Below are positions 38 to 41,565 of a DNA stretch of 43,784 nt, in pieces. A program made the translations under genes and the position numbers. The notes beneath the pieces are model-generated. The model saw nothing but the letters and a program-made list of their open reading frames with translations, made no database searches and was not told the origin of the DNA. Source of the stretch: Clostridia bacterium (GTDB lineage: Bacteria; Bacillota; Peptococcia; Peptococcales; BICA1-8); NCBI GenBank assembly GCA_012720075.1, contig JAAXZE010000031.1, positions 1-43,784 on the forward strand, written 5' to 3'. Position 1 is the stretch's first letter. Every line of letters begins with the position of its first letter.

Positions 38-322
38 ATGAGTGATGCGTTGGGGTTTATTGAAACATATAGCTTAGTATCGGTTCTGGAAGCTGCTGAT
101 GCCATGTGCAAGGCTGCCGATGTGGAACTGGTCGGTTATGAGAATGTAGCTTCCGGTTTAATTTCTGTTGTTGTCCGGGGTGACCTGGCTGCGGTGCAGA
201 GGGCAGTAGACGCCGGAGTCAAAGAAGCCGGCAAGGTGGGAAAGGTTTACAGCTATAATGTCATCGCCAGGCCTCATCCCGACGTGGAAAAAATTGTCGC
301 CAAATACGTTATCGATTGGTGA
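38..322 (+). CDS. BMC-H microcompartment shell protein (PduA/EutM type)
   Basis: 94 aa. Canonical BMC-domain pattern: LGFIET..LVSVLEAADAMCKAADVELVG...ASGLISVVVRGDLAAVQRAVDAG...VIARPH. First gene of the co-directional BMC operon. Confidence 0.9.
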   Translation: MSDALGFIETYSLVSVLEAADAMCKAADVELVGYENVASGLISVVVRGDLAAVQRAVDAGVKEAGKVGKVYSYNVIARPHPDVEKIVAKYVIDW

Positions 323-350: not shown

Positions 351-1868
351 ATGGGAAAGGGGGAACTTGAATTGAGTAGAATTGACAATGATTTACTCTC
401 TGTACAAGAGGCTCGTATTCTTGTGGAAAACGCCCGCGAGGCCCAGAAGATACTGGCCGTTTTCCCTCAGGAAAAGCTGGACATAATCGTTCAGAATATG
501 GCTGAAGAAGTATCTAAATTAGCTAAGGAACTTGCCATAATGGCCCATGAAGAAACGGGTTTTGGCAAATGGCAGGATAAATATATCAAAAATGTTTTTG
601 CCAGTGATTTTCTATACAAAAAAATCAGGGATATGAAAGTTGTCGGTATTATTGATGAAGACAAGGAAAATCAGACAATGGACATTGGAGTCCCCGTAGG
701 AGTGATTGTAGCCTTACCCCCTTCGACTAATCCTGTTTCCACTACAATCTATAAAGCCTTGATTGCCATAAAATCCGGAAACGCAATCATCTTTTCCCCC
801 CATCCCAAGGCAAAAAAAACCATTACCAGAACTCTGGATATATTGATAAAAGCTGCTGAAGAAGCCGGATTGCCTTGTGGAGCCATCGGGTATTTGCGAA
901 CAATAGCCTATGAAGGCACCGTTTCCTTAATGAATCACAAAGATACGGCATTAATTTTGGCGACAGGAGTGCCTAAACTGGCTGAAGCGGCTTATAAATC
1001 GGGGAAACCGGTCATTTATGGCGGCCCCGGTAACGGGCCGGTCTTTATTGAACGTTCCGCTGATATAAAAAAGGCCGTGGAAAATATTATTGCCAGCAAA
1101 ACTTTTGATAACGGGATTGTAGCGGCCTCGGAGCAGTCAATCGTTGCCGAGGAATGTATTGCTCAGGAAGTAAAACGGGAATTTGAGAAAAACGGTGGAT
1201 ATTTCATGTCGGAAAAAGAAGCGGCAGAGCTTGGCAAGTTGCTTTTAGGCCTCGACGGAAGAATAAATCCCGAAAGTGTAGGTAAATCGGCTTTAGAGTT
1301 GGCTAAAAGAGCCAATTTCCGTGTTCCTGCCGATACCAAAGTTTTGATTTCCGAACAAAAATATGTATCCCCTGATAATCCCTATTCCCGAGAAAAACTA
1401 TGTCCAGTTCTGGCTTTCTATGTTGAGAAAGACTGGAAGAATGCCTGCGAAAAATGCATAGAACTGCTTATTAATGAAGGCATGGGTCACACTTTGGTCA
1501 TTCACTCCAAAAATGAGAGTGTTATTAGAGAATTTGCCTTAAAAAAACCTGTATCAAGGGTGCTGGTAAATACTCCTGCCTCTTTAGGCGGAATAGGTGT
1601 TACAACCAACCTTTTTCCCGCCTTAACTTTAGGTTGCGGTACGGCCGGTGGAGGATATATCTCTGACAATGTCTCGCCTAAAAACTTGATTAATATCCGT
1701 AAAGTCGGTTATGGTGTTCGTCAGCTTGATGAGATAACCCCCAAAATTCGGTCAGAGGAAGTTGGCAAACTGAATTGTAACAGCTATTTGGCTAAAGGGA
1801 GTTCGGCTGAAGAAAGTTATGATATCAAAGAATTTTTAGATAAATTGCTTGACCAACTGGAACTGTAA
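351..1868 (+). CDS. Acylating aldehyde dehydrogenase paralog 1 (AdhE-N-terminal/EutE-PduP superfamily). The catalytic Cys position is Ala, so it may be a pseudoenzyme. It carries a C-terminal amphipathic tail.
   Basis: Conserved blocks PSTNPVSTTIYKALIAIKSGNAIIFSPHP, GPGNGP, LGCGTAGGG. The nucleophile motif reads FDNGIVAASEQS, against FDNGTICASEQA in the paralog at 11621. The C-terminal extension of roughly 50 aa ends YDIKEFLDKLLDQLEL. An alternative in-frame start is TTG 372, 8 nt after AAGGGGGA; it would bring residue numbering into register with paralog 2. Confidence 0.85.
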   Translation: MGKGELELSRIDNDLLSVQEARILVENAREAQKILAVFPQEKLDIIVQNMAEEVSKLAKELAIMAHEETGFGKWQDKYIKNVFASDFLYKKIRDMKVVGIIDEDKENQTMDIGVPVGVIVALPPSTNPVSTTIYKALIAIKSGNAIIFSPHPKAKKTITRTLDILIKAAEEAGLPCGAIGYLRTIAYEGTVSLMNHKDTALILATGVPKLAEAAYKSGKPVIYGGPGNGPVFIERSADIKKAVENIIASKTFDNGIVAASEQSIVAEECIAQEVKREFEKNGGYFMSEKEAAELGKLLLGLDGRINPESVGKSALELAKRANFRVPADTKVLISEQKYVSPDNPYSREKLCPVLAFYVEKDWKNACEKCIELLINEGMGHTLVIHSKNESVIREFALKKPVSRVLVNTPASLGGIGVTTNLFPALTLGCGTAGGGYISDNVSPKNLINIRKVGYGVRQLDEITPKIRSEEVGKLNCNSYLAKGSSAEESYDIKEFLDKLLDQLEL

Positions 1869-1916: not shown

Positions 1917-4457
1917 TTGGAACTCAAGGAGTTTACAAATAAATTTGCCGCTGCCACTAAACATTTATCCCCCGAAGAAAAGGCTGCAATTATGAAGGTC
2001 TTTCAGGGGATTTCTCAGGAATTGGCCGGAAAAAAAACAAAAGATATTGAGAAAAAAACCCCTGCAGTTGACGGCGAAATTACAGGAATGACGCCGCGTA
2101 TTGAACGCTTGCGGGCCAACTATATGAAAGCAAAGCCTAGTGTTACTGTTCATCGGGCCAGGGCTTATACAGAGGTGACTAAAAAATATTTTGGCCTGCC
2201 CAAAATCCTTCTCCGGGCCAAGTGCTTTAGAAAAGCCTGTGAGACAGCACCGCTGTTAATTCAAAAGGATGAGTTGATTGTGGGGCATCCCTGCGGTAAA
2301 CCAAGGGCCGGTGCTGTATCGCCGGATATTGCCTGGCGATGGGTAAGGGATGAGTTGGACACCATGTCCACCAGGCCTCAAGACCCTTATGAAATCAGCG
2401 AAGAAGATAAGCGGATTTTAAGGGAGGAGATTTTTCCTTTCTGGGAAGGCCGCAGCGTAGATGAAATTTGCCAGCAACAATATGAGGAAGCCGGGATATG
2501 GTCATTCTGCGGGGAAGCCTTTGTCTGTGACTTGTCCTACCACCAGGTTAACGGCGGAGGAGACACCTGCCCGGGCTACGACATAATCCTCATTAAAAAA
2601 GGAATACTCGGTATCAGAAAGGAAGCCGAAGATAGACTAAGCAAACTGTCCATGGAAAATCCTGAGGATATCGATAAGATTTACTTCTATAAAGCGGAAA
2701 TTGAGACCTGTGACGGTATTCTGGCTTATGCCAAACGTCTTTCCGATTATGCCGCTGAGCTGGCTCAGCGAGAAACGGACGAAGCAAGAAAGCAGGAATT
2801 GTATAAAATTTCCGATATACTGGCCCATGTACCGGCTAATCCACCCAGAACCTTCTATGAAGCTTTGCAGTCTGTTTGGACTTTGCAATCTCTCTTCGTA
2901 CTGGAAGAAAACCAAACGGGTATTTCTCTGGGCCGCATGGATCAGTACCTTTATCCTTTTTACAAAGCCGATCTGGAAGCCGGACGCATGACCAAATTGG
3001 AAGCTTTTGAATTATTGAGTTGTTTTTTAATTAAATGCTCCGAAGTAATGTGGCTATCCAGTGAAGCAGGCTCGAAGTATTTTGCCGGTTATCAACCCTT
3101 TATCAATTTAACCGTTGGTGGGCAGAAAAGAACCGGCGGAGACGCAACCAATGATTTAACTTATTTGATAATGGATGCCGTTCGCTTTACCAAGGTGTAT
3201 CAGCCATCCCTGGCTTGTCGCATTCATAATAAATCTCCCCAAAAATATTTAAAGAAAATTGTTGATGTTGTAAAAGCAGGGTTGGGCTTTCCGGCCTGCC
3301 ATTTTGATGACGCCCATATAAAAATGATGCTGGCCAAAGGATTTAGTATTGAAGACGCCCGGGATTATTGTCTAATGGGCTGTGTTGAACCGCAAAAATC
3401 GGGCCGCATCTATCAGTGGACCTCCACCGGATACACTCAATGGCCCATTGCCATCGAATTTGTATTAAACCGGGGGATTATGAAATGGCACAAGACCAAA
3501 CAAGGGCTGGATACCGGAGATCTGGACAATTTCAAAACCTATGAAGAGTTTGATGCTGCCGTCAAAAAACAAATCGAACATATTATTCGTTTATCGGCTA
3601 TAGGAACCATTATTAGCCAGAGGGTTCACAGGGATCATGCTCCCAAACCATTGATGTCCCTTTTAGTGGAAGGCTGTATGGAAAAGGGCAAGGATGTTAC
3701 CAGTGGTGGAGCACTGATAAATTTCGGACCGGGATTGATTTTCTCTGGTTTGGGAACCTATGCCGATTCCATGGCGGCTATTAAAAAGCTGGTCTTTGAT
3801 GAAAAGAAATATACCCTTAAACAAATCAGAGATGCTTTGGACGCCAATTTCGAAGGTTATGAGGAATTGCGCAAAGATTGTCTGAATGCTCCCAAATATG
3901 GTAATGACGATGATTTTGTTGATGAAATTGCTGCTGATTTGATTGTTTGGACCGAGCGGGTCCATAACAGGTTTAAAATGCTTTATTCCCATTTTTCCCA
4001 CGGCACACTGTCTATTTCCAATAACACTCCTATCGGTGAGATTACCGGTGCCACACCTAACGGTCGTTTGGCCTGGACACCTTTATCGGACGGAATTAGT
4101 CCTACTCAAGGTGCCGATAAATTAGGGCCGACAGCCATCATTAAATCGGTTAGTAAGCTAAATGTGGAAGCTATGAATATCGGTATGGTGCATAACTTCA
4201 AACTGTTAAAGGGTATTTTGGAGACTCCGGAAGGAGAGAACGGTTTGATAAATTTGCTAAGAACCGCCTCTATTCTTGGCAATGGGCAGATGCAGTTCAG
4301 CTATGTTGACAATGAGGTTTTGAAAAAAGCCCAGCTTGAACCGGAAAAGTACAGGGATTTGATAATTCGAGTGGCCGGATATAGCGCCTACTTTGTAGAG
4401 CTTTGCAAAGAAGTACAGGATGAAATAATCAGCAGAACGGTTCTGGACCGTTTTTAA
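1917..4457 (+). CDS. cutC: Choline trimethylamine-lyase (glycyl radical enzyme)
   Basis: 846 aa, TTG start 7 nt after AGGAGGG. Glycyl-radical motif RVAGYSAYF with Gly at residue 821. Thiyl loop GCVEP with Cys489/Glu491. Tyr208, Asp216 (NGGGD), Phe395 (GYQPF) and Thr502 (QWTS) counted directly from the translation. They fall on the numbering I recall for Desulfovibrio alaskensis CutC choline-binding residues. Confidence 0.9.
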
Positions 4458-4525: not shown

Positions 4526-5515
4526 ATGAACACAATGACTATTGTAACCAACGGCATAGAAAGAAAAGGGAGAATATTCAATATTCAAAAATATTCCATC
4601 TACGATGGACCAGGGATTCGAACCTTGATTTTTTTCAAAGGTTGTCCTCTAAGATGTAAATGGTGTTCAAACCCGGAGGGACTGGAAAGAAAATATCAGG
4701 TTATGTTCCAGGCAAATTTATGTACCCACTGCGGCAGTTGTATCCCTGTTTGTCCTGCTTATATCCATTATTTCTCGGAGCAGGGCGAGGGGTTGTTTCA
4801 GGCTGACGCTGTAAAACCGGTGCACAAAATAAACAGAAACATTGACTGTATTGGTTGCCGGAAATGCGAAACGGCTTGCCCCAGCCAGGCCTTATCCATT
4901 GCCGGTATGGATAAAACCGTTTCCGAGGTTATGCAGGTTATAGAACAGGATTTGCTTTTCTATCAAATTTCAGGGGGAGGAGTGACTCTGGGCGGAGGAG
5001 AGGTTAGTACCCAGCCGGAATTTGCCGCCAATATCTTGTCAGAATGCCAGCGTATGGGCATTCACACGGCTATTGAAACCTGTGGTTATGCCAAACTGGA
5101 TTGCATGCTCATGCTGGCCCGGTTTACCGATTTAATTTTGTATGACATTAAACACATCGATTCGGAAAAACATTATGAGCTCACAGGAGTCCGTAATGAA
5201 CGCATTCTGGATAATCTTACGGAGCTTTTGCGTCGAGGTTTTAACGTCAGGATCAGAATGCCCCTTATCAAAGGTTTGAATGACAGTGAAAAAACTATTC
5301 AGAGGACAATGGAATTTTTGCAATCCTTAAGAAATTATAAAAACTTCCTGGGAGTTGACCTTCTCCCCTATCATAAACTGGGTATCAACAAATACAAGCA
5401 ATTGGACATGGAGTATGCTATCACCGAAGATTTAAGCTACCGAGATGAGGAACTGGTTAAAATCGGTGAGTTCATAAAAGGTTACGGCCTGCAGGCGGAA
5501 ATTATCAGGCATTAA
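4526..5515 (+). CDS. cutD: Glycyl-radical enzyme activating enzyme (radical SAM)
   Basis: [12 protein letters not shown] radical-SAM CxxxCxxC motif. Two ferredoxin-like motifs, [12 protein letters not shown] and [15 protein letters not shown]-binding [10 protein letters not shown]. Directly downstream of cutC. ATG 4535 is an alternative start with better spacing from the GGGG purine run. Confidence 0.9.
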
Positions 5516-5891: not shown

Positions 5892-6376
5892 AAAAAAGAA
5901 TTATGATAATCGGACCGACCCAGTCCGGCAAAACCAGTCTGGTTAATGCCTTAGAAAATACCAATCGACCGTTAATAAAAACCCAGGACGTTATTTATGG
6001 AAAAAAGACCATAGAAACACCAGGTTCATATATTGAAAACCCTTCCATGTACAGGTACCTGATTGCCATTGCCCAGGACGCATCCCATGTGCTTTTATTA
6101 ATCGATCCATCAAGACTTATGGAGGTTTATCCGCCGGGTTTCGCCAAAGCCTTTAATTGTCCTGTGAGCGGAGTTATTACCAAGATTGATTTGGCTGGGC
6201 AAAACGCTGATTGGGCCTATCGACAGATGAAAAAAATAGGGGTTAATGAACCATATTTCAGTCTTTCTTTTAAGGACAATACCGGAGTGGAAGCTTTAAA
6301 AAACTACCTGTCGGCAAATGAACTCAGGGGAGGTGGGCTAGGAGATGAAGTTCTTAACGGAAATGGAACTGCGTGA
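5888..6376 (+). CDS. EutP/PduV-family small GTPase-like BMC-associated protein
   Basis: P-loop [14 protein letters not shown]. Size and TKIDL motif are typical of EutP/PduV. ATGA start/stop overlap with the upstream gene. Confidence 0.85.
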
Positions 6377-6980
6377 TTTATACAATAAAGAATCCTTTGC
6401 TACTTTCGTTTTGCAGCAGGATGTAAGGATTACACCGGGGGCTCGCCAATTTCTCATGGATAGAAAAATTAAACTTATCGAAAGTCCCGCCAATAACCGG
6501 AAACCCAAAGAAAAAACGGTGCAAGGCCCAGATAGCTTAAATACCCTGAGACTGCCCATATTATTGGAAAAAATAAATTCTTTGTTTCTGCTGGTTGCTG
6601 CTGAGATATTGCACTCCGGTGATACTGCTTTGGCGAAAAAAGTTATGCTTTTGGCTAAATGTTTTCAAAAAATACAGAAAGCCGAACAACAGCAGATAGT
6701 ATTAGAACAATTGCAATTTTTGGGTTTAGCTGAAGAAATAGAGAACCAATGGGAAGATATTGAGATTACTCAAACCCATCTGGGCCTAAAAAACGGGCGA
6801 GAGATCGCTTGGTTAAACTATTTGCGGGTCTCCCTGCAAGAAGCCGAATTAGCCATAAGGGAAGCCTATTGGGATGAACAAAAACAAAGATGTTCACGGC
6901 AGGATCTTATCGACGGGGTTAATCTGGTAATTAGCCTGGTTGATGTAATAATGAAGAAATGTCTAGGAGGAACAAAATGA
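6345..6980 (+). CDS. BMC-locus protein of unknown function with an EutQ/EutT-type N-terminal motif
   Basis: 211 aa. ATG preceded by AGGAG. The N-terminus [39 protein letters not shown] resembles the N-terminus of the EutQ-like ORF at 10349. The rest is predicted helical with no recognisable catalytic motif. Confidence 0.55.
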   Translation: MKFLTEMELRDLYNKESFATFVLQQDVRITPGARQFLMDRKIKLIESPANNRKPKEKTVQGPDSLNTLRLPILLEKINSLFLLVAAEILHSGDTALAKKVMLLAKCFQKIQKAEQQQIVLEQLQFLGLAEEIENQWEDIEITQTHLGLKNGREIAWLNYLRVSLQEAELAIREAYWDEQKQRCSRQDLIDGVNLVISLVDVIMKKCLGGTK

Positions 6981-8424: not shown

Positions 8425-9759
8425 TTGGATCTGCTAAACATTATCAAAGACGCGGGGGTTATCGGAGCAGGAGGAGCGGGTTTCCCAACCCATGCCAAAC
8501 TGACTTCCCAGGCCGAGTATGTGTTGCTAAACGGAGCGGAATGCGAGCCTCTGCTTAGAGTTGACCAGCAATTGCTGGCACAGTTCCCCGATGAAATCCT
8601 CCAAGGTTTGGACGCTGTAAGCAAACATATTAAAGCTAATAAAGCCATAATTGGCATCAAGGGCAAACACAAAAAGGTTATTGACATATTGCGGGACAGA
8701 ATTGCCGCTTTAGGGCTTGCAAACTACATGGAAGTCAAGGAACTTCCGGATATGTACCCTGCCGGTGATGAACAGGTTTTGGTCCATGAGCTGACCGGCA
8801 GAGTTGTTCCGGAAGGTTCCATACCCCTCAAAGTTGGCTGTGTGGTTATCAATGCAGAAACAGCCCTGAATGTCCGGGAAGCTTTAACCGGAAAGGCTGT
8901 TACGGAAACCTATATTACCGTTACAGGAGATATCCCCAACCCAATTACGGTCAAGGTTCCCGTTGGTATAGCGATTAAGGAAGTAATAGCCCATGGCGGG
9001 GTGGAGAATTTAGATGAATATGCAGTGATTGACGGTGGACCCATGATGGGTGCCGTCCTTAGTGATACTAACGGATATGTCACTAAGAAAAGCAAAGGTT
9101 ATGTGCTGTTGAAAAAAGATCATTATCTTATCAGAAAAAAATCGGTGACCACCGACCAGGCAAGGGTTATAAGCCGGGCAGCTTGTGAGCAGTGTCGGAT
9201 GTGTACTGATTTATGCCCCCGTTATCTACTGGGACACAGTATTCAACCTCATAAAATCATGCGGGCTTTAAACTATGATCTGGATGTAAATAAACAGCAA
9301 ATTGCTCAATTATGTTGTGAATGTAACGCTTGTGAGCTGTTTTCCTGTCCGGCCAATCTCCATCCCAAAACAATCAATGTTCTTTTTAAGCAAAAAATGG
9401 CCCGGCAAGGCATTAGATATCAACCGGAAGAAAAGGACTATCAAGCCAGATCTTTTCGAGAATATCGTCTTATTCCCAGTAAACGGCTGGTAGCAAAAAT
9501 GGGTTTAACGGCTTTCGATAGACCGGCTCCTTTGACTCAAATTGAGTTTAAACCTGAATACTTAAGTATTGCTTTACGGCAGCACATCGGAGCGCCTGCC
9601 ATTCCGGTTGTCTCAGTAGGAGAACATGTTAAAGCCGGGCAACTGATTGGCAAAATTCCGGAAAACAGCCTGGGGGCTACAGTCCATGCCAGTCTGGAGG
9701 GAACTGTTACCGAGATTACTGATAACGCAATTGTGATAAAGGTGGGTCCTTATGTATAA
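8425..9759 (+). CDS. PduS-like / RnfC-type flavo-iron-sulfur oxidoreductase
   Basis: GAGGAGFPTHAKL nucleotide-binding motif. Two 4Fe-4S motifs, CEQCRMCTDLCP and CCECNACELFSCP. BMC-locus context. Confidence 0.85.
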   Translation: MDLLNIIKDAGVIGAGGAGFPTHAKLTSQAEYVLLNGAECEPLLRVDQQLLAQFPDEILQGLDAVSKHIKANKAIIGIKGKHKKVIDILRDRIAALGLANYMEVKELPDMYPAGDEQVLVHELTGRVVPEGSIPLKVGCVVINAETALNVREALTGKAVTETYITVTGDIPNPITVKVPVGIAIKEVIAHGGVENLDEYAVIDGGPMMGAVLSDTNGYVTKKSKGYVLLKKDHYLIRKKSVTTDQARVISRAACEQCRMCTDLCPRYLLGHSIQPHKIMRALNYDLDVNKQQIAQLCCECNACELFSCPANLHPKTINVLFKQKMARQGIRYQPEEKDYQARSFREYRLIPSKRLVAKMGLTAFDRPAPLTQIEFKPEYLSIALRQHIGAPAIPVVSVGEHVKAGQLIGKIPENSLGATVHASLEGTVTEITDNAIVIKVGPYV

Positions 9760-10300
9760 AGCAATAGGAATGATTGAACTATCCAGTATTGCCAGAGGAA
9801 TTGTGGTGGCGGATTTAATGCTTAAAACGGCTTTTGTCCAAGTTGTAACGGCAACTTCTGTTTGTCCGGGCAAATATATCATTGTTGTCCAGGGAGAAGT
9901 TGCTGCCGTGGAAAGCTCAGTTAATGCGGGACTTGAAAAGGCAAGGGAGTATTTGATAGATAGTTTCGTTCTCCCTAATGTTCATGACTCTGTTTTTTCT
10001 GCAATTACAGCCACTACTATGCCTGATCGGCTGGAGGCCATTGGAATAATGGAATCTTTCTCCTTGGCATCGATGATAATTGCGGCCGATGCCGCACTGA
10101 AGGCTGCAGACATTCAAGCCCTGGAGTTATGTTTAGGCAGGGGGCTGGGAGGTAAAGCTTATTTCACCTTTACCGGTGATGTGGCCGCTGTGCAGGCGGG
10201 TATCGATGCAGGAAAAGCCCTGGTTCTGAAAAACGGCCTTTTGGTTGATGTAGAAGTAATTCCTTCTCCGTCGGAAAAGCTGTGGCCTTCGCTGTTATAA
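9752..10300 (+). CDS. BMC-T tandem-domain shell protein (PduT-like)
   Basis: 182 aa with two BMC domains (IGMIELSSIARGIVVADLMLK... and IGIMESFSLASMIIAADAALK...). Cys38 sits in SVCPGKY, the position of the PduT 4Fe-4S ligand as I recall it. Confidence 0.85.
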   Translation: MYKAIGMIELSSIARGIVVADLMLKTAFVQVVTATSVCPGKYIIVVQGEVAAVESSVNAGLEKAREYLIDSFVLPNVHDSVFSAITATTMPDRLEAIGIMESFSLASMIIAADAALKAADIQALELCLGRGLGGKAYFTFTGDVAAVQAGIDAGKALVLKNGLLVDVEVIPSPSEKLWPSLL

Positions 10301-10348
10301 AAAGTATTCTCACATATTTGGTTCATTTAAACGAAAGGAGGTGCTACC

Positions 10349-11020
10349 TTGAAAAAACTTGTTTGTGCAGAAGTGGTTAAAGCTGCGGCAGAAAAGGGTC
10401 AGAAAACCATCAGCTTGGAGTGTAATACCCTTATTACCCCGGCTGCCAGGGATCTGGCCAAAGAATTGGGCGTAGAATTTGTAACAGGTTCATCTGCCGG
10501 AGAAAAGGGCCGCTGCCAAAATAATGTTTTTCAGAAGAATGAAACTCTAAAGAATATTGACAGGGATCTTATTTACCAAATTGTAAAAGTGATATTGTCA
10601 AATAACCTCCTGCAAAATGCAGCGGACCTGCCTTCTTATAAACCTTTTTGTATAGATGGTGACCCGGAAAGCGGATTAAAGATTGTCCGAGGCAGGACAG
10701 TAAAATTTGCCCCCCTTTACCCAGGTGATACAAATAAAAAAGTAGCTTGTTGTGATGTGGCAAAAGAAGAAAACGGTCAGATGCGAGCAGGGTTTTTGAC
10801 CATGGAAAAATCCTGTTTTGACGGAGATCTGGGCAATGACGAAATAAATGTTATTTTGGAAGGAAGTATGTCGGTAAATATCAACGGAAATACTTTCGAA
10901 GTTTGCCAGGGGGATGTTCTCCTCATACCTAAAGGGTCTAAAGTAACAAGAAGTTCTTCAGGGTATGTCAAACTCTTTTATGTAACCGGAAACCGGGCAA
11001 ACCTTATGGTACACCAATAG
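10349..11020 (+). CDS. eutQ: EutQ-like cupin protein
   Basis: TTG start after AAAGGAGGTG. C-terminal cupin barrel: EINVILEGSMSVNINGNTFEVCQGDVLLIPKGSKV. The N-terminal ..LITPAARDLAKELGVEF motif is shared with ORF 6345. Confidence 0.75.
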   Translation: MKKLVCAEVVKAAAEKGQKTISLECNTLITPAARDLAKELGVEFVTGSSAGEKGRCQNNVFQKNETLKNIDRDLIYQIVKVILSNNLLQNAADLPSYKPFCIDGDPESGLKIVRGRTVKFAPLYPGDTNKKVACCDVAKEENGQMRAGFLTMEKSCFDGDLGNDEINVILEGSMSVNINGNTFEVCQGDVLLIPKGSKVTRSSSGYVKLFYVTGNRANLMVHQ

Positions 11021-11036
11021 GATAGGAGGGTAAATT

Positions 11037-11585
11037 ATGCAGGCTCTTGGCTTAATAGAGACATGGGGACTCCTTCCTGCTATTGAATGTGCGGATGTAA
11101 TGCTCAAGACAGCTCCAGTGGAACTGTTAGAAAGAACTTTTGTAGGCGGTGGGTATGTAACCATTACGATAACGGGTGATGTGGCGGCTGTTAAAGCGGC
11201 AGTAGAAGCCGGAGTGTCGGCGGTTGAGAGAATCAGCCAATCATTATTAAAATCTTGCCATGTTATTCCCAGACCTCATTCAGAAGTTGAGGGCACAGTG
11301 ATTCTGGTAAAGGCGACATCTCCCCAGAAAAAACCGTCAAACAGCGCTATCTCTGTTCCGCTGCATCTTGAGCTTTATAACAAAAAGGAAGTTGACGCTT
11401 TCTTTCAGGATTTTGGTTTTGAACAAAGTGTAAATGCTCTAAAAATGCTCTCGGTAGAAAAATTACGCAGGTTGGCAAGAGATTACAAAGAACTGGATAT
11501 AGCCGGCAGGGCCATATCCAGAGCCAACAAAGAATTGCTGATTCAACAAATTGCAGAATATTACCGCAAAGAGTTTAACAAATAA
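11037..11585 (+). CDS. BMC-H shell protein with a C-terminal SAP/HeH (Rho_N-like) extension
   Basis: Residues 1-90 are a canonical BMC-H domain (ALGLIETWGLLPAIECADVMLK...GGGYVTITITGDVAAVKAAVEAG...HVIPRPH). The roughly 90-aa tail contains LSVEKLRRLARDYKELDIAGRAISRANKELLIQQIAEYY. Confidence 0.85.
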   Translation: MQALGLIETWGLLPAIECADVMLKTAPVELLERTFVGGGYVTITITGDVAAVKAAVEAGVSAVERISQSLLKSCHVIPRPHSEVEGTVILVKATSPQKKPSNSAISVPLHLELYNKKEVDAFFQDFGFEQSVNALKMLSVEKLRRLARDYKELDIAGRAISRANKELLIQQIAEYYRKEFNK

Positions 11586-11620
11586 TCTTTGTGAAAAAAG
11601 ACAGAGAGAGGTAGAGTAAA

Positions 11621-13102
11621 TTGCAAACCTTTGATTTTGATTTACAATCGGTGCAAGAGGCCAGAAATCTGGCCCGTCAGGCTAAATTGGCCCAGCAAGA
11701 ACTGGCTAAATTTAATAACGAACAGATTGAAAAAATTATCTGCAATATGGTGAAAGCAGCCGAAGAGAATGCCGTTTCTCTGGCTGAATTAGCGGTGAAA
11801 GAAACGGGATTTGGCAAAGTAGAAGATAAAACTTTCAAAAATATTTTTGCTTCCACAGAATTGTACAAATTCATTAAGCCAATGAAAACCATTGGAGTAA
11901 TTAATGAAGACAAGATCAATAAGATTATAGAAATTGCGGAACCTGTAGGGTTATTGCTGGGTATTGTCCCTTCAACCAATCCTACATCTACAACCATCTA
12001 TAAATCTATTATTGCCATAAAATCCCGTAACGGCATTGTATTTTCGCCCCACCCTTCGGCTCTCAAATGTACCCTGGAAGCTGCCAGGTTAATGAATGAA
12101 GCGGCAGCCGCTGCCGGGGCTCCGCAGAATATTATCGGTTGTGTATCTAAGGTTTCCATGAAGGCGACCGAAGAACTCATGAAATGTCCTGAAGTTGATA
12201 TGATAATTGCCACCGGGGGCTCAGCCATGGTCAAATCCGCCTATAGTGCCGGGAAACCGGCCTTGGGTGTAGGACCCGGCAATGTTCCGGCTTTTATTGA
12301 AAAAACTGCAAATATTTCGAAGGCTGTAAAAAATATTATCACAAGTAAAACCTTTGATAATGGGACTATATGTGCTTCTGAGCAAGCAGTCATTGTGGAA
12401 GAATGCATTCGCGACCGGGTTATAGAAGAATTCAAACGTCAGGGCGGCTATTTCTTAACCCCTGAGGAGACTAAAAAGGTTGCCGAGAAGATATTTATCA
12501 ACGGTCATACCATGAATGCCAAGTTTGTGGGGAGATCAGCGGCTGAAGTAGCTGCCGGCGCCGGTATAACCATTCCGCCGGGTACCAAGGTTCTCTTGGG
12601 TGAACAAGAAGGGGTAGGGCCGGAATATCCTTTGTCCTACGAGAAGCTGACCACAGTACTGGCTTTTTATACCGTAAAAGATTGGCAAGAAGCCTGTGAA
12701 TTGTGCATTAAACTTTTAAATAACGGTGGTGTAGGACATACCCTGTCCATTCATACGGAAAATGAGGAAATGGTCATGAGATTCTCTGAAAAACCGGTAT
12801 TTAGGATTTTGGTAAACACTCCCTCCACCCATGGCGGTGTGGGAGCTAGTACCGGCCTTGCTCCCGCCTTTACCCTGGGGTGCGGTACATGGGGCGGCAG
12901 CGCTACTTCGGATAATGTGACACCTTTGCACCTAATTAATAAAAAGCGGGTGGCCTATGGTATTAAAGAGTGTAGTGAAAACTCAAATATATCCTATTTA
13001 AAAAACGTGCAAAGTACAAATTTTGCCGATTTTAGTGAAGATCAGCTTATTTCGTTGGTGGATGAGGTCCTCTCACTTTTAAAGAAACGGGGTGAACTTT
13101 AA
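11621..13102 (+). CDS. CoA-acylating aldehyde dehydrogenase paralog 2 (catalytic Cys present) with a C-terminal encapsulation-peptide-like tail
   Basis: FDNGTICASEQA (Cys251), ATGGSAMVKSAY, GVGPGNVP, LGCGTWGGS. The C-terminal tail is EDQLISLVDEVLSLLKKRGEL. TTG start. Confidence 0.9.
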   Translation: MQTFDFDLQSVQEARNLARQAKLAQQELAKFNNEQIEKIICNMVKAAEENAVSLAELAVKETGFGKVEDKTFKNIFASTELYKFIKPMKTIGVINEDKINKIIEIAEPVGLLLGIVPSTNPTSTTIYKSIIAIKSRNGIVFSPHPSALKCTLEAARLMNEAAAAAGAPQNIIGCVSKVSMKATEELMKCPEVDMIIATGGSAMVKSAYSAGKPALGVGPGNVPAFIEKTANISKAVKNIITSKTFDNGTICASEQAVIVEECIRDRVIEEFKRQGGYFLTPEETKKVAEKIFINGHTMNAKFVGRSAAEVAAGAGITIPPGTKVLLGEQEGVGPEYPLSYEKLTTVLAFYTVKDWQEACELCIKLLNNGGVGHTLSIHTENEEMVMRFSEKPVFRILVNTPSTHGGVGASTGLAPAFTLGCGTWGGSATSDNVTPLHLINKKRVAYGIKECSENSNISYLKNVQSTNFADFSEDQLISLVDEVLSLLKKRGEL

Positions 13103-13104
13103 AA

Positions 13105-13746
13105 GTGGGAAAGTATGACGCTTTGGCGGAGCTTCTGCTGGAAGTGCTCAAAGAAGGGGGGAACATAAAAAAGGATACTAACGCTATACCTGTGGGTATA
13201 TCTAACCGTCATATTCATCTTTCCCAAAAGGATTTAGATTGCCTATTCGGTCAGGGATATGAACTGACAAAGCTCAAAGATTTGAGTCAACCTATGCAGT
13301 ATGCCTGTAAAGAAACAGTGATTATCTGTGGACCCAAAGGGGCAATTGAAAATGTTCGCGTCCTTGGACCTGTGCGCAAGGAGACCCAGGTAGAGATCCT
13401 TCAGTCCGATTGTTTCAAACTGGGGGTGATGGCTCCGGTAAGGATGTCGGGTGATTTGGAAGGAACACCGGGAATTACCGTAATTGGCCCCAAGGGAAGC
13501 GTCCAATTGTCAAAGGGAGTCATCGTCGCTCAAAGGCATATCCATATGACCCTGGAAGATGCCAAAAGATATGATGTAACCGATGGCGAACTGGTGACAA
13601 TCAAGATAAGCGATATTCGAGGAGGCACGTATTCCAATGTAGTCATACGAGCCAACGACAATTCGGCTCTGGAGTGCCATCTTGACATGGAAGAAGCCAA
13701 TGCTATGTATCTTAGTCCAAACTCGACGATTACAATTTTAAGATGA
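13105..13746 (+). CDS. pduL: PduL-type phosphotransacylase
   Basis: Two PduL repeats with GISNRHIHLS and AQRHIHMT motifs. The N-terminal amphipathic helix YDALAELLLEVLKEGG looks like an encapsulation peptide. Confidence 0.9.
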   Translation: MGKYDALAELLLEVLKEGGNIKKDTNAIPVGISNRHIHLSQKDLDCLFGQGYELTKLKDLSQPMQYACKETVIICGPKGAIENVRVLGPVRKETQVEILQSDCFKLGVMAPVRMSGDLEGTPGITVIGPKGSVQLSKGVIVAQRHIHMTLEDAKRYDVTDGELVTIKISDIRGGTYSNVVIRANDNSALECHLDMEEANAMYLSPNSTITILR

Positions 13747-13764
13747 AAATAGGAGGAATTGAAA

Positions 13765-14052
13765 ATGAAAACAGAAGCTTTAGGATTAATTGAAACCAGA
13801 GGTTTAGTAGGAGCTATTGAAGCCGCAGATGCAATGGTAAAGGCCGCCAATGTTTATCTAATAGGCCGCGAATTAGTTGGCGGAGGTCTGGTTACCGTTA
13901 TGGTAAGAGGTGATGTAGGAGCCGTAAAAGCTGCGACAGACGCCGGAGCAGCTGCAGCTCAGCGAGTTGGTGAACTCATCTCCGTTCATGTTATTCCTCG
14001 CCCTCATGGCGATGTAGAAATGATCCTTCCTTCAGTCAAGAAAGAAGCGTAA
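13765..14052 (+). CDS. BMC-H shell protein (PduA/PduJ type)
   Basis: [57 protein letters not shown]...[11 protein letters not shown] 13765 lies 8 nt after AGGAGG. The ORF track starts at TTG 13759. Confidence 0.9.
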
Positions 14053-14070
14053 TCATTTTAAAAACCAAGG

Positions 14071-14099
14071 GCTGCCTCAATAAAGAGGCAGCTTTTTTT
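14071..14099 (+). terminator. Rho-independent terminator closing the BMC operon
   Basis: GCTGCCTC-aataaa-GAGGCAGC followed by T7. Confidence 0.8.
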
Positions 14100-14258
14100 A
14101 AAACTCTAAATTGATTGTTTTTATTGCCCCAATAAATCCTAATTTATTAAGATATTTTTTTGAGCTATATCAAATTGTTATATCAGGTATATTTATTACG
14201 TAATTAACAAGATTATAAGTAGTTTTTATAATAAAATTGGCTGTGAATAATTTAACAA

Positions 14259-14287
14259 TTGCACAATGTTTTGTACTTAGTTAAAAA
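14259..14287 (+). promoter_or_regulatory. Candidate sigma-A promoter for the BCCT transporter
   Basis: TTGCAC, a 17-nt spacer, then TAAAAA. The -10 match is weak and the surrounding spacer is AT-rich. Confidence 0.3.
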
Positions 14288-14318
14288 AGTCCAAAAGAGT
14301 TGTGCGTTAAATATTCAG

Positions 14319-14350
14319 GTTATACAAGCTCAAAGTTATACAAGCTAAAA
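14319..14350 (+). repeat. Tandem 16-nt direct repeat just upstream of the BCCT ribosome-binding site
   Basis: GTTATACAAGCTCAAA / GTTATACAAGCTAAAA, 15/16 identical and head to tail. Confidence 0.8.
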
Positions 14351-14367
14351 AGAGGGGAGAAAAAAGG

Positions 14368-16005
14368 ATGGAAAACGGAAAAATCGCAAAGATTAACAAA
14401 ACGGTATTTTGGGGCAGCACATTAGTCTGTTTGTTATTTTTCGGTCCGATGATCATTTTTCAGGAATCTGCCCAGGGTCTGGTAGGAAAAGTCATGTATG
14501 CTATTACCCATGGTACTGACTGGTTGTGGGAAAGTATTGTTTTCGGTGCGGTTCTATTTTCTTTGTGGTTAGCCTTTGGTCCTTACGGTAACGTAAAACT
14601 GGGAGGTCCCGACGAAAAACCTGAGTTCTCAACTTTCACTTGGTTTGCCATGATGTTTTGTGGTGGTTCAGGCGCAGGTCTTATCTATTGGGGAATTCTG
14701 GAACCAATATATTATTTAAAATGGCCTCCTTTCTGGGCAGAACCACATTCGGCACAGGCTGCTCAGTGGGCGCTGTCATACGGGATCTTTCACTGGGGTA
14801 TTAGTGCTTGGGGTACATTTGTTATACCGGCTATAGGTTTTGCGTACATGTTTTATGTCAGGAAAAAGCCTTATCTATATCCCAGCTATGCTTGTAGAGG
14901 TGTTTTCGGTGATAAGGTTGATGGAAGTTTTGGCAGAATAATAGATTTAATAATGGTTGTTGGTATGGTTGGTGGGGTAGCAACATCTTTAGGACTTATC
15001 TTACCGATGATTACCAACATAGCTGCAGATTATTTAGGCCTGCAGGACACCCTCTGGCTACGGATTGTAGTTGCCGCATTGTATTCTTGTCTGTACGGAT
15101 ATAGCTGTTACAAAGGTTTATACTCAGGGATTGCAAGAATTTCAAATATTAATATGTATATGCGCTTCCTTTTAATATTATTCGTCTTATTTGCAGGACC
15201 GACTTTATTCATGCTTTCGTTATTCTTTGATAATATCGGTATGTTATTACAAAACTTTTTACGGATGAGCTTATATACTGACCCCATAACTAAATCAGGT
15301 TTCCCCCAAGACTGGACTGTTTTCTACTGGGCATGGTGGTTTGCCTGGGCAACCTATATGGGGCTTTTCGCCACCAGAATTTCTCGCGGCAGAACTATTA
15401 AACAATTAGTCTTAAACATGCTCTTTACTGCAACTGCCGGATGTGCTACTTTCTATCTGACATTTGGTTCTTATACCGTTGATATGATCCTTAACAAGGG
15501 CGTAGATTTGATTACAATTTTACAAGAATCAGGCGGACCGGCGGTAATAACCTATTTATTAAATACTTTGCCGTTTGCTTCTGTTGCAATACCTCTGTTC
15601 CTTATCGTTATGCTTGTATCCCAGGTTACAGCCGTAGACTCGGTTTCATACACAATCTCAGCCATGTGCTGTCATGAAATAAGAGATACTCAAGAACCAC
15701 CCAAGTGGTCAAGAATATTCTGGTCTTTCATGTTATTCTTCTGCACCTGCTCACTTTTTGTAGTAGGTGGTTTACAAGTAGTACAGCTGTCATCAATTAT
15801 ACTGGCTTTCCCGGTCGCTTTTGTAACAGTAATCCTGGCTGTTTCTTTGGTTAAATGGTTGAGAGAAGACTTTGGCGAAATTGTAAAACCGAGATATTTA
15901 ACCTACGCTGATTCAAAGTTAGCTTCTGAGGTTTCCGAGACTACTGATACTGTCAACAGAACTATAACACCTGAAGCAGTTATTGCAGCAGATACCGGAA
16001 AATAA
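14368..16005 (+). CDS. BCCT-family (betaine/carnitine/choline) transporter
   Basis: 545 aa, about 12 TM segments. BCCT signature FYWAWWFAWATYMGLFATRISRGRTI. Confidence 0.9.
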   Translation: MENGKIAKINKTVFWGSTLVCLLFFGPMIIFQESAQGLVGKVMYAITHGTDWLWESIVFGAVLFSLWLAFGPYGNVKLGGPDEKPEFSTFTWFAMMFCGGSGAGLIYWGILEPIYYLKWPPFWAEPHSAQAAQWALSYGIFHWGISAWGTFVIPAIGFAYMFYVRKKPYLYPSYACRGVFGDKVDGSFGRIIDLIMVVGMVGGVATSLGLILPMITNIAADYLGLQDTLWLRIVVAALYSCLYGYSCYKGLYSGIARISNINMYMRFLLILFVLFAGPTLFMLSLFFDNIGMLLQNFLRMSLYTDPITKSGFPQDWTVFYWAWWFAWATYMGLFATRISRGRTIKQLVLNMLFTATAGCATFYLTFGSYTVDMILNKGVDLITILQESGGPAVITYLLNTLPFASVAIPLFLIVMLVSQVTAVDSVSYTISAMCCHEIRDTQEPPKWSRIFWSFMLFFCTCSLFVVGGLQVVQLSSIILAFPVAFVTVILAVSLVKWLREDFGEIVKPRYLTYADSKLASEVSETTDTVNRTITPEAVIAADTGK

Positions 16006-16032
16006 GAAAAGGATATATAAAAAGCATTTCTG

Positions 16033-16071
16033 CACAGCCTCTGGAGAAACCGGAAAGAGGCTGTGTCTTTT
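16033..16071 (+). terminator. Rho-independent terminator
   Basis: CACAGCCTCT ... AGAGGCTGTG 10-bp stem followed by TCTTTT. Confidence 0.7.
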
Positions 16072-16168
16072 AATTAGGAAATTTTCACTAATTAAACAAT
16101 TTGGTATACTGTATCCCCGCAAATAAGGTATAATAACTTGACTGAAAAAAATAAGAAAGGTGATCAGA

Positions 16169-17095
16169 ATGCGTTTGGAACAGCTATATTTTCTTATTGA
16201 AGTATATAGGTGTCAATCCATTTCTTTAGCTTCTGAACGGGCCCATATCTCTCAACCGGCCTTAAGTACTTCTATTAGTAAATTAGAATCTGAACTTGGT
16301 GTACCGCTATTAAAACGAACTAATCAAGGTGTCTTTCCGACTGAAATCGGTGAGATGATAATTCAAAAGGCCATAAAGATTGCTGAAATTATTGAAGATA
16401 TTAAGGAAATTGCTAAAATGAACTCCCTTGATTTTTGTGGAGATTTATCAATTGCTGCCGAGGCCGGGGTTAACATTTCGCTGATGCCCAATGTTTTAGT
16501 TAATTTTAAAAAGAGCTTTCCGAGAGTAAATACCTTTCTCAAGGTTGGAGAATCAAATAATATTTTGAGAGATGTAAATTCAGGAAAAGCCGACTTTGGC
16601 ATCATAATGAAGACGGAAGCTTTTAATAAAGCAAAAGATATTAAATATTTAGAGCTATTTACCGATGAATTAGTTGTCTTAGCAGGTAAAGATTGTCCGA
16701 TTTCAGATAATGAAACCACTTTGAAAGAGGCTTTATCTTTCCCTATAGTTTTATACAATACAGAATATGTCACCGATTGTGGAGTTTCCAGCATTTTGAA
16801 TAAATATGGCGATTTTAATGTTTCTTTTCGGATAGACAATTTACCCATGTTAGAAAAAATAATATCTCAGGGACAAACGCTGGTATTTGTGCCTAGGCTT
16901 ATGGCAAAAGAATATTTTAAGGAAAATAGATTCAAAACGGTTAAAATTAAAGATGTAAAAATGGAAGTAAGTGTAATTTTGATTTGGTCAAGTCGTCATC
17001 ACCTTTCTTACATTGAAAAAGAATTTATAAAAATATTACGAAAGTTCTGTCCTGAAAACAGTCCAATCAAAAAGGAAAGCGAAAAAAATAGTTAA
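16169..17095 (+). CDS. LysR-family transcriptional regulator
   Basis: The N-terminal wHTH MRLEQLYFLIEVYRCQSISLASERAHISQPALSTSISKLESELGVPLLKR is the LysR signature, followed by a substrate-binding domain. ATG 16169 is preferred over GTG 16160. Confidence 0.85.
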   Translation: MRLEQLYFLIEVYRCQSISLASERAHISQPALSTSISKLESELGVPLLKRTNQGVFPTEIGEMIIQKAIKIAEIIEDIKEIAKMNSLDFCGDLSIAAEAGVNISLMPNVLVNFKKSFPRVNTFLKVGESNNILRDVNSGKADFGIIMKTEAFNKAKDIKYLELFTDELVVLAGKDCPISDNETTLKEALSFPIVLYNTEYVTDCGVSSILNKYGDFNVSFRIDNLPMLEKIISQGQTLVFVPRLMAKEYFKENRFKTVKIKDVKMEVSVILIWSSRHHLSYIEKEFIKILRKFCPENSPIKKESEKNS

Positions 17096-17262
17096 CCATT
17101 TTAAAAAATGAATAAAAAAGGCCTGTTTTTGGCAGGTCTTGTTTTTGCTTTGCCTCAGCTTATATGGGGCATATATTTTTGCTAATTTACATTGCTCTGG
17201 CAGGTGATTATTCTATAGCTAATGGGTAGTGAAATATTACACAATGGTAAGGAGCTAATCAT

Positions 17263-41551: not shown

Positions 41552-41565
41552 AAGGTGGGAGTAAA

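Follow-up and report, generated by a model that had tools for sequence, protein, structure and literature searches.

The gene at positions 351..1868 of the 43,784-nt window (the whole stretch of Clostridia bacterium DNA analysed here, with all coordinates on the forward strand) is the CutB orthologue of a type I cut, or GRM1, choline-utilisation microcompartment operon on the chromosome of a spore-forming member of the Bacillota, and it encodes Ala in place of the catalytic Cys of acylating aldehyde dehydrogenases (AldDHs). With a probability of roughly 0.6, its product has no catalytic function, is encapsulated and probably serves near CutC as a multivalent organiser of the enzyme core. An inactive CutB is not new, since it has been described since 2014 (Axen 2014, PMC4207490; Martinez-del Campo 2015, PMC4453576; Aussignargues 2015, PMC4594438; Sutter 2021, PMC8217296), and those papers already propose a scaffold role and describe an encapsulation peptide at the C terminus; what the window adds is only a new member with Ala at the nucleophile site. 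From the sequence, we infer the inactivity of CutB, its encapsulation and its partners.

Identity of the gene and its locus

Read from ATG 351, the open reading frame 351..1868 encodes a 505-aa PF00171 protein containing FDNGIVAASEQS. The start is probably TTG 372..374, giving 498 aa, as suggested by the ribosome-binding site AAGGGGGAA at 357-365, by the 498-aa database gene call P0001 and by the orthologue N-termini (MNRIDNDLL). Profile searches scored the protein at 82.3 bits with PF00171 (cut-off 23) and 654.7 bits with TIGR02518 (EutH_ACDH, cut-off 620.1). The AF2 model shows an ALDH fold with a mean pLDDT of 79, the confidence being low exactly at residues 255-258 and 415-440, and its best Foldseek match is 3K9D (E 1.9e-55, TM 0.83/0.91), to which CutB is 55% identical across the structural alignment.

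As the first-pass annotation had stated, the locus holds a second full-length acylating paralog, CutF (11621..13102, 493 aa), which contains FDNGTICASEQA and is presumably an active acetaldehyde dehydrogenase. CutB and CutF share 48% identity over 454 aa. By identity, CutB groups with Cys-less homologues from Desulfosporosinus, Desulfitobacterium, Sporomusa and Clostridium (64-83%) and not with its own CutF, and it shares with the Cys-less clade the signatures CEKCIELL, EKLCP, V207 and Y223. Its nearest relative, P0002, was independently assembled and is 83% identical, while the CutF pair of the same two loci is 85% identical. In a neighbour-joining tree that carries no bootstrap support and is read as an unrooted split only, because the midpoint root fell inside the CutB clade as an artefact, a single split places the Cys-less sequences on one side, with the exception of P0155 and P0228. 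A recent duplication of CutF was rejected as the origin of CutB, which is closer to Listeria EutE (55%, structural alignment) than to the CutF of its own operon.

The locus reads BMC-H, CutB, CutC, CutD, BMC, PduV, EutJ, EutN, PduS, PduT, EutQ, CutF, PduL, BMC-H, BCCT. Immediately upstream of CutB lies a BMC-H shell protein gene (38..322, PF00936), which in most related loci is the second of two operon-opening BMC-H genes. The downstream neighbour is truly CutC, the glycyl radical enzyme choline trimethylamine-lyase (1917..4457), as the initial annotation held: it scores 1570 bits with TIGR04394 against a cut-off of 1050, matches PF02901 and PF01228, and has the ribosome-binding site AAAGGAGGG before TTG 1917. 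It is followed by the gene of the activating enzyme CutD (4526..5515; TIGR04395, 514.7 bits against a cut-off of 360). In addition to these two profiles, both above their cut-offs, PF00936 occurs seven times, and PF03319 and PF06130 are present, so that the window shows the features of a GRM1 or type I choline microcompartment locus. The context expected of a GRM1 CutB is likewise found, namely CutC, CutD, BMC shell genes and a second, Cys-bearing AldDH, and the same arrangement recurs in related genomes. The nearest named relatives are Desulfosporosinus, Desulfotomaculum and Sporomusa.

The order shell gene(s)-CutB-(ADH)-CutC was found in 79/80 genomic loci, with CutD present wherever the contig reaches that far, and relatives with the signature peptides are encoded in at least 588 stretches matched in the species-level genome collection. 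The description of CutB as lying directly upstream of cutC is correct here, where 48 nt separate the CutB stop from the CutC start, but does not hold generally, since an Fe-alcohol dehydrogenase gene intervenes in 12 of 77 pairs. Several close relatives are among these, whereas an alcohol dehydrogenase gene was found neither between CutB and CutC nor anywhere else in the 43.8-kb window.

Absence of the catalytic Cys

The catalytic Cys of the motif FDNGxxC(A/S)SEQ is not present in the window CutB. At this position GCG (1122..1124) encodes Ala258, which aligns with Cys251 of CutF (TGT, 12371-12373) and with the Cys of 3K9D and 5J78; codons and alignment thus agree with the difference reported at first. 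Cys occupies the site in 92/92 relatives of the Cys-bearing group and in all of the best 120 homologues of CutF, in contrast to 0/120 among the best 120 homologues of the window CutB. Among the 79 syntenic genomic orthologues, the site is Ser in 77, always with a TCN codon, Ala in one, Thr in one and Cys in none. Ser dominates, and Ala is a minority state (5/196 sequences). The argument that a Cys codon needs at least two base changes to become GCG is true as far as it goes, yet it makes the wrong comparison, because the common codon is TCN for Ser and TCG becomes GCG by one change. This is immaterial to the conclusion, since neither Ser nor Ala is Cys.

No other Cys takes over the role of the nucleophile. 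Every Cys of the window CutB was checked against the relatives, and no compensating Cys was found. Cys351, the only one that seemed enriched in CutB, was rejected because it also occurs in 17% of the Cys-bearing relatives and in the Cys-bearing protein L055, and is rare in the Pro-type clade; Cys429 was rejected because it is relaxed to Ser in half of the CutB sequences. L055 itself, from a Helcococcus MAG, was considered as a Cys-retaining CutB, but its locus reads AldDH-EutN-FeADH-GRE-EamA-AE, identifying it as the nearest active relative rather than as a CutB.

A probably remodelled active-site cleft

Only eight alignment positions are at least 85% conserved in the Cys-bearing relatives and different in CutB, and all of them fall within residues 204-258. 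In the window CutB, glycines conserved in the ATGG and GVGPGN loops are missing. The nucleotide-binding differences noted at the outset (ATGVPKLAEAAY against ATGGSAMVKSAY, and YGGPGNGP against GVGPGNVP) are real. Val207 (969..971) replaces the second Gly of ATGG, which is Gly in 97% of the 92 Cys-bearing relatives and in 116/120 CutF homologues, whereas Val is found in 196/196 sequences of the CutB clade (G207V, 100%). Tyr223-Gly224 (1017..1022) replaces the Gly-Val of the GVGPGN loop (G223Y, V224G); the Cys-bearing relatives have Gly in 96% and Val in 97%, the CutB clade has Tyr in 93% and Gly in 97%, and 119 of the best 120 CutF homologues have GVGPGNVP. In the ALDH superfamily, we take the motifs that hold the glycines replaced by Val207 and Tyr223 to line the dinucleotide site; the placement of both residues in the dinucleotide-binding cleft was made by homology to these general motifs, not from coordinates. 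A search of the cited ALDH papers for contacts of the glycines at 207 and 223 found roles given for His, Glu, Asn and Cys, with the glycines not mentioned.

The remaining catalytic residues are all present in the window CutB. His380-Thr381 (1488..1493), the GHT motif of the proton relay (PMC5311937), and Glu348 (1392..1394), the active-site Glu of the EKL motif (PMC4762007, PMC5311937), are retained, as is Asn127 (729..731), the oxyanion-hole Asn of PSTNP (PMC4762007). Across the clade this Asn is relaxed, being Ser in 36% of the CutB sequences compared with Asn in 120/120 CutF proteins. His380, Thr381, Glu348, Lys77, Lys80, Thr126, Thr205, Gly206, Glu261 and Gln262 are kept at 96-100%, whereas the Pro-type subclade lacks Lys80, Thr205 and others. 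The retention of His380, Thr381 and Glu348, together with the fixation of Val207, Tyr223 and Gly224, suggests that the old active-site cleft has not simply decayed but remains under constraint, perhaps in use as a binding surface. The conservation of His380, Thr381, Glu348, Lys77/80, Glu261 and Gln262 exceeds the obvious need of a pure scaffold and could reflect ligand binding or residual chemistry.

One reading of this pattern, which we regard as rather unlikely, is that CutB is a ligand-binding regulatory subunit whose remodelled cleft still takes up NAD(H), CoA/acetyl-CoA or acetaldehyde, and which either buffers or senses them inside the compartment or forms hetero-oligomers with CutF that tune the activity of CutF. 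The ten residues kept at 96-100% would fit such a role, and so would Val207, Tyr223 and Gly224, which are fixed rather than variable, as expected of a re-purposed pocket; CutB and CutF also share a common fold at 48% identity. However, bulky residues replace two glycines of the presumed dinucleotide-site motifs, which argues against canonical NAD or CoA binding, and the loss of Lys80, Thr205 and others in the Pro-type subclade also speaks against this reading. Obligate heteromers are likewise not indicated by paralogs of this identity with different C-terminal helices.

Substitutions at the nucleophile site

The residues observed at the CutB nucleophile site are Ser, Pro, Ala, Thr and Val, with at least four independent origins of Ala, two of Thr and two of Pro, and none of Cys. 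Within the Ser-type clade, the Ser is 95% conserved, and its hydroxyl might have a specific role. Since this Ser would stand next to the retained His380 and Glu348, CutB could be imagined as an enzyme with altered chemistry, such as a Ser-His-Glu acyl-transferase or an esterase-like activity on acetyl-CoA, or one using another nucleophile, and a purifying selection similar to that on CutF would agree with an active enzyme. We nevertheless hold this to be highly improbable. Besides the window, at least three further independent lineages have Ala, others have Pro, Thr or Val, and a large, diverse subclade in Desulfovibrio and Lactobacillales is all Pro; Ala, Pro and Val are incapable of acting as a nucleophile. 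The Ala lineage, represented by the window and P0002, shows no sign of decay, as judged from the 83% identity of its CutB pair compared with the 85% of the CutF pair. In addition, there is no CutB-specific Cys as a substitute, and the oxyanion Asn is relaxed.

Selection on CutB

CutB is under purifying selection similar to that on the Cys-bearing CutF. In 134 matched pairs, the median dN/dS was 0.148 for CutB, 0.169 for CutF and 0.100 for CutC, and the matched pairwise identities were 0.774, 0.808 and 0.816 for CutB, CutF and CutD, respectively. Neither the window nor any of the 79 syntenic loci shows a frameshift or premature stop in the CutB frame, which is intact apart from a few copies cut short by a contig end. 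The identities and dN/dS values reject decay of CutB to a pseudogene. The entire orthologous clade has been without the Cys for a long time, under purifying selection throughout. The idea that CutB is a decaying, functionless duplicate, or its Ala codon a sequencing error, is effectively refuted despite the lost catalytic residue and the single substitution that separates GCG from TCG, given the intact frames, the dN/dS of 0.13-0.15, the invariant Val207, the presence of Ala in the nearest independent relative P0002 as well, and the fact that correcting an error would restore Ser, not Cys.

The C-terminal tail and the proposed role of CutB

The kept fold and the long amphipathic C-terminal tail described at first are both supported by the AF2 model. 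A poorly conserved linker (residues 467-490, 1749..1820), with pLDDT below 50 and with variable sequence and length among orthologues, leads into a predicted helix, DIKEFLDKLLDQLE (residues 491-504, 1821..1862). The hydrophobic moment of this helix, 0.62, ranks at the 98th percentile for the protein, and its motif (D/E)LxELLEKLLxQL is conserved across orthologues and distinct from that of the helix of CutF (LISLVDEVLSLLKK). The tail fits the Kinney/Aussignargues definition of an encapsulation peptide, i.e., a predicted terminal amphipathic helix of about 15-20 aa after a poorly conserved linker, and the helix is thus a putative encapsulation peptide that would target CutB to the shell. Streptococcus-type CutB reportedly has no encapsulation peptide (PMC4594438), and scaffolding mediated by the helix can therefore not be universal.

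All the computational evidence agrees with the original proposal of a conserved, nucleophile-less, encapsulation-tagged paralog with a probable non-catalytic role, which is favoured because Cys is absent clade-wide, Ala, Pro and Val recur at its site, the cofactor-loop positions are altered, selection is purifying, and the linker and helix are present. In the organiser model, CutB would form neither thiohemiacetal nor thioester intermediates and so would not oxidise acetaldehyde to acetyl-CoA, a step that would fall to CutF. It would be packaged in the compartment lumen via its own C-terminal helix. Like its relatives, CutB is probably dimeric or tetrameric and would in that state present several of these helices. 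Multivalent CutB could then organise or cross-link the cargo core beside CutC, a step likened to the cross-linking of CutC by the active AldDH CutF of GRM2 and to the organisation of carboxysomes by defunct enzyme domains. A literature search found no published assay or other experiment on any CutB.

A further version of the organiser model is put forward tentatively. Because Val207, Tyr223 and Gly224 are fixed while His380 and Glu348 are kept, CutB may have been re-engineered into a dedicated organiser, with its former cofactor cleft turned into a candidate binding site, and may tether CutC to the shell, directly or via a metabolite-dependent switch, by its own class of encapsulation helix.

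Relation to known systems

The "putatively inactive second AldDH" of GRM1A and GRM1B is the CutB of the type I cut clusters of Desulfovibrio, Desulfitobacterium and Clostridium (PMC4207490, PMC4453576, PMC4594438, PMC8217296), and an inactive scaffold has been proposed for it (PMC4207490, PMC4594438, PMC8217296). The window CutB resembles it in locus type, in its place beside CutC, in the missing Cys, in the Cys-bearing CutF of the operon and in the helix resembling an encapsulation peptide. It differs in that the literature gives Ser or Pro at the nucleophile site, compared with Ala here.

CutB shares its fold, a TIGR02518 score above the cut-off and the GHT, EKL and PSTNP motifs with EutE, the acetylating acetaldehyde dehydrogenase of EUT2 microcompartments (Listeria monocytogenes lmo1179, PDB 3K9D) and the N-terminal domain of AdhE, and it has a C-terminal encapsulation peptide as in type I BMC AldDHs (PMC8217296). 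Unlike EutE and AdhE, it lacks the Cys nucleophile and has ATGV for ATGG and YGGPGN for GVGPGN, so that the reaction implied by the family name is not expected.

In GRM2 of Klebsiella (Kalnins 2020, PMC6971018), an oligomer with the AldDH fold and a C-terminal tail resembling an encapsulation peptide interacts with CutC, so that the enzyme core is made larger or cross-linked, and this is the mechanism proposed here for CutB. However, this cross-linker, CutF, is an active enzyme and is bound to a defunct N-terminal domain of CutC of about 335 aa, which the GRM1 CutC does not have, and GRM1 instead has a separate inactive paralog. More distant parallels are the defunct enzyme domains that act as carboxysome organisers (as cited by Axen 2014, PMC4207490) and the vertebrate pseudoenzyme ALDH16A1, which has lost the whole catalytic triad (PMC12041015). 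As in CutB, a dead enzyme fold is retained there under selection for protein-protein interaction roles, although the lineages are unrelated, the partners are other ones, and CutB keeps its His and Glu.

Implications

CutB passes the cut-off of the NCBIfam equivalog TIGR02518. As a result, its Ser and Ala types are routinely annotated as "acetaldehyde dehydrogenase (acetylating)", and too many enzymes are predicted for such loci. Three features tell CutB from the active enzymes: G207V, G223Y/V224G and the relaxation of the oxyanion Asn.

Trimethylamine, a gut metabolite linked to disease, is produced in choline microcompartments, and little is understood of how these are organised internally. 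The conserved, putatively inactive AldDH encoded next to CutC may be what organises the enzyme core, an idea already published. The Ala variant shows, as do those with Pro, Thr and Val, that the site does not require a nucleophile. If CutB were a re-engineered organiser with a rebuilt cleft, it would be the first case shown, in a catabolic microcompartment, of a pseudoenzyme dedicated to scaffolding or regulation, and the recurrent change of Ser to Ala, Thr or Pro, with no reversion to Cys, would reflect selection against a reactive thiol in the acetaldehyde-rich lumen.

The choline utilization locus

Two full-length PF00171 proteins are encoded within one operon of the window, i.e., the acylating aldehyde dehydrogenases (AldDH) CutB at 351-1868 (+, 505 aa) and CutF at 11621-13102 (+, 493 aa). 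CutB is followed downstream by CutC at 1917..4457 (+), recognized by TIGR04394 (1570 bits, cut-off 1050), and then by the activase CutD at 4526..5515 (+), recognized by TIGR04395. By its profile match, the CutC of the window is a bona fide choline trimethylamine-lyase. The gene order, namely BMC-H, CutB, CutC, CutD, BMC, PduV/EutP, a conserved 211-aa ORF, EutJ, BMC, EutN, PduS, PduT-like BMC-T, EutQ, BMC, CutF, PduL and BMC-H, is that of a type I cut / GRM1 choline microcompartment operon. The 211-aa ORF (6345-6980) is found at the corresponding place in nearly all of the 80 related loci and has no Pfam family, its sole match being a faint, sub-threshold one of its C-terminus to the EutT adenosyltransferase NF011595 (E 1e-7, 31 bits vs. 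a cut-off of 226). CutC carries an N-terminal extension of ~58 residues (1917-2090) ahead of the TIGR04394 profile start, which may be a short putative N-terminal encapsulation peptide as described for GRM1 glycyl radical enzymes (GREs).

No Fe-alcohol dehydrogenase (Fe-ADH) gene was found within 1-43784, where the window begins inside the operon and the upstream part lies beyond it. Of 77 related CutB-CutC pairs, 12, close relatives included, have an Fe-ADH (PF00465) between the two genes, and many Clostridium-type loci have it 4-6 kb upstream of CutB. Among the fetched loci, the intervening gene was seen in L003, L004, L007-L010 and L016 at about 11500-12670. At 8425-10300, the window encodes a PduS-like flavin/FeS oxidoreductase (Complex1_51K, RnfC_N, Fer4) and then a tandem-BMC PduT-like shell protein, a pair that, according to a literature proposal, conducts electrons in a minority of the GRM1 loci; NAD+ recycling at this locus possibly proceeds via PduS/PduT.

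After the operon, a BCCT-family transporter, a LysR regulator and an EamA transporter (14368-18255) likely serve choline uptake and its regulation; in another locus, L018, the BCCT-family gene is placed upstream of the operon instead. Elsewhere the window carries ordinary chromosomal genes (a two-component system, RND efflux, Amt, RNase G, L21/Prp, Spo0B, Obg, ProB/ProA and NadD). This context indicates a spore-forming Bacillota host, and among named relatives Desulfosporosinus, Desulfotomaculum/Desulforamulus and Sporomusa are the closest. A third PF00171 protein (41548-42819) adjoins the amino-acid kinase/PUA gene (ProB) and is thus presumably ProA (glutamate-5-semialdehyde dehydrogenase), unrelated to the cut locus.

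The nucleophile site of CutB

CutB and CutF are 48% identical over 454 residues, and their alignment places FDNGIVAASEQS of CutB above FDNGTICASEQA of CutF. The first-pass annotation had read an Ala in CutB at the position of a catalytic-type Cys in CutF, and both residues were confirmed, as GCG at 1122-1124 (Ala258) and TGT at 12371-12373 (Cys251), respectively. The CutB numbering counts from ATG 351, which is followed by AAGGGGGAA (RBS, 357-365) and an in-frame TTG at 372. Since the database gene call has 498 aa and the orthologues begin with MNRIDNDLL, the true start is probably TTG 372, not ATG 351; counted from there, Ala258 becomes Ala251, identical in numbering to Cys251 of CutF.

Whether a non-Cys residue is conserved among orthologues, a question raised by the same annotation, was answered in the affirmative by alignment: the 120 best CutB homologues (64-100% identity) contain 0 Cys; Ser predominates, alongside 4 Ala, 2 Pro and 1 Thr. 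When one genome per species was scanned, at least 599 stretches matched, and in 588 of these a relative with the CutB signature CEKCIELL or PY[SAV][RK]EKLCP is encoded. In 79 of 80 fetched loci, the genes run shell gene(s)-CutB-(ADH)-CutC, with CutD next wherever the contig reaches, and the site residue in these 79 is Ser (77), Ala (1) or Thr (1). The Ser codons of the syntenic orthologues are TCN without exception. TCN lies a single step away from Cys TGY as well as from Ala, Thr or Pro. The GCG of the window is thus derived from TCG by one change, and not from a Cys codon by two, as had been argued earlier; the accompanying claim that a sequencing error is unlikely holds, because the Ala state was independently assembled. 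Nearest-neighbour comparison gave at least four independent Ala origins (one shared by the window and the homologue P0002, and one each in the homologues P0034 and P0106 and the locus L074), two Thr origins, two Pro origins and no reversion to Cys. The window and P0002 both have Ala, with CutB 83% and CutF 85% identical; the Ala state is therefore old and has persisted without decay.

Clustering at 50% identity revealed a highly diverse Pro-type Cys-less group in Desulfovibrio, Halodesulfovibrio and Mailhella, which also holds shorter Vagococcus and Enterococcus proteins, as well as a single Val type and a single Thr type. In an unrooted NJ tree without support values, the Cys-less sequences fall on one side of a single split, except P0155 and P0228. 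One metagenomic cluster representative, P0131, with the motif FDYGTLSCCEQS, has Ser at the nucleophile site and Cys at +1 and +2, a pair that might, from the motif, be a shifted nucleophile in one divergent Cys-less lineage. The nearest Cys-bearing relative of the clade is the 62% identical protein of L055, a Helcococcus MAG locus (FDNGVICASEQS), in which the CutB signatures EKLCP, Gly224 and Glu359 are already present. This protein was rejected as a CutB, as it is encoded in another GRM locus (AldDH-EutN-FeADH-GRE-EamA-AE-TPR protein, 10004-16529). The L055 GRE shares 71% identity with the CutC of the window.

Active site, fold and C-terminal tail

The deviations of CutB in the nucleotide-binding block that had been noted before were observed again (ATGV vs. 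ATGG, YGGPGNGP vs. GVGPGNVP). Comparison of 196 CutB-clade sequences with 92 Cys-bearing relatives identified no more than eight positions that are at least 85% conserved in the latter yet different in CutB (204, 207, 211, 221, 223, 224, 250 and 258). Position 207 is Gly in 97% of the Cys-bearing relatives and Val in 100% of the CutB clade, position 223 changes from Gly (96%) to Tyr (93%), and position 224 from Val (97%) to Gly (97%). At the pyrophosphate site, residue 207 presumably comes after the Rossmann Gly of the ALDH 'TG(S/G)' turn, and by general ALDH motifs 223/224 would lie in the loop beside the nucleophile. Among 120 CutF homologues, Cys is kept in 120, ATGG in 116 and GVGPGNVP in 119. 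The Asn with an oxyanion-hole role (PMC4762007) is kept in 120/120 CutF, is Ser in 36% of CutB and is Asn127 in the window. The TLGCG Cys is replaced by Ser in half of the CutB sequences, and comparison of Cys positions across the clade and the Cys-bearing relatives revealed no compensating Cys in CutB. His380-Thr381, the proton relay, and Glu348, which positions the nicotinamide ribose (PMC5311937, PMC4762007), are conserved at 96-99%.

The fold is retained, as the first-pass annotation had stated: the AF2 model of CutB (mean pLDDT 79), of low confidence at 255-258 and 415-440, matches Listeria EutE 3K9D with TM 0.83/0.91. Residues 467-490 have pLDDT <50 and vary in sequence among orthologues. 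The amphipathic C-terminal tail is likewise kept, as a predicted helix at 491-504, DIKEFLDKLLDQLE, whose hydrophobic moment, 0.62, ranks at the 98th percentile within the protein. Its conserved motif is (D/E)LxELLEKLLxQL, whereas that of CutF is EDQIxxLVDEVLxLLKKRG, suggesting that the two carry different encapsulation-helix classes.

Selection on CutB

Mean pairwise identities from 20 matched genomes are 0.774 for CutB, 0.808 for CutF, 0.816 for CutD and 0.862 for CutC. The median dN/dS values, from 134 matched pairs restricted to unsaturated dS in CutB, CutF and CutC, are 0.148, 0.169 and 0.100, respectively. The CutB ORF is intact in every locus, with no frameshifts or premature stops and a few clipped by the contig end. 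A decaying copy is ruled out by the dN/dS, the identity and the intact ORFs; on these estimates, CutB is a functional protein under purifying selection.

Role and annotation of CutB

CutB thus combines an absent nucleophile and active-site changes with purifying selection, an encapsulation-type tail and strong synteny with CutC. It would be packaged in the compartment lumen without catalysing acetaldehyde oxidation, and as an ALDH-type oligomer it could display several helices and organize or cross-link the core near CutC. The strongest experimental precedent comes from GRM2, in which the active AldDH CutF binds the CutC N-terminal domain and enlarges the core (PMC6971018). The main rival is a ligand-binding or regulatory role, with which the conservation of His and Glu and the fixation of Val and Tyr in CutB are compatible. 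That the window CutB acts through a Ser nucleophile is unlikely, given its Ala and the recurrence of Ala, Pro and Val at the site.

A scaffold or regulator role for the inactive second AldDH was suggested by Axen et al. 2014 (PMC4207490), and the names CutB and CutF were assigned by Martinez-del Campo et al. 2015. Aussignargues et al. 2015 reported a C-terminal encapsulation peptide on both copies in Desulfovibrio, Desulfitobacterium and Clostridium and posited the inactive form as a scaffold (PMC4594438), and Sutter et al. 2021 marked a 'putatively inactive second copy' in GRM1A/B (PMC8217296). No published assay, localisation or deletion of CutB was found in the literature. The non-catalytic reading of the first-pass annotation is sound, yet already published.

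CutB scores 654.7 bits against TIGR02518, an NCBIfam equivalog with a cut-off of 620.1, so that nucleophile-less Ser- and Ala-type proteins are named 'acetaldehyde dehydrogenase (acetylating)' (as in P0003-P0100); the Pro-type proteins bear only the public name 'aldehyde dehydrogenase family protein'. What is new from the window is an Ala-type member of the CutB family; the diagnostic substitutions, the selection estimates and this annotation caveat come from the survey.
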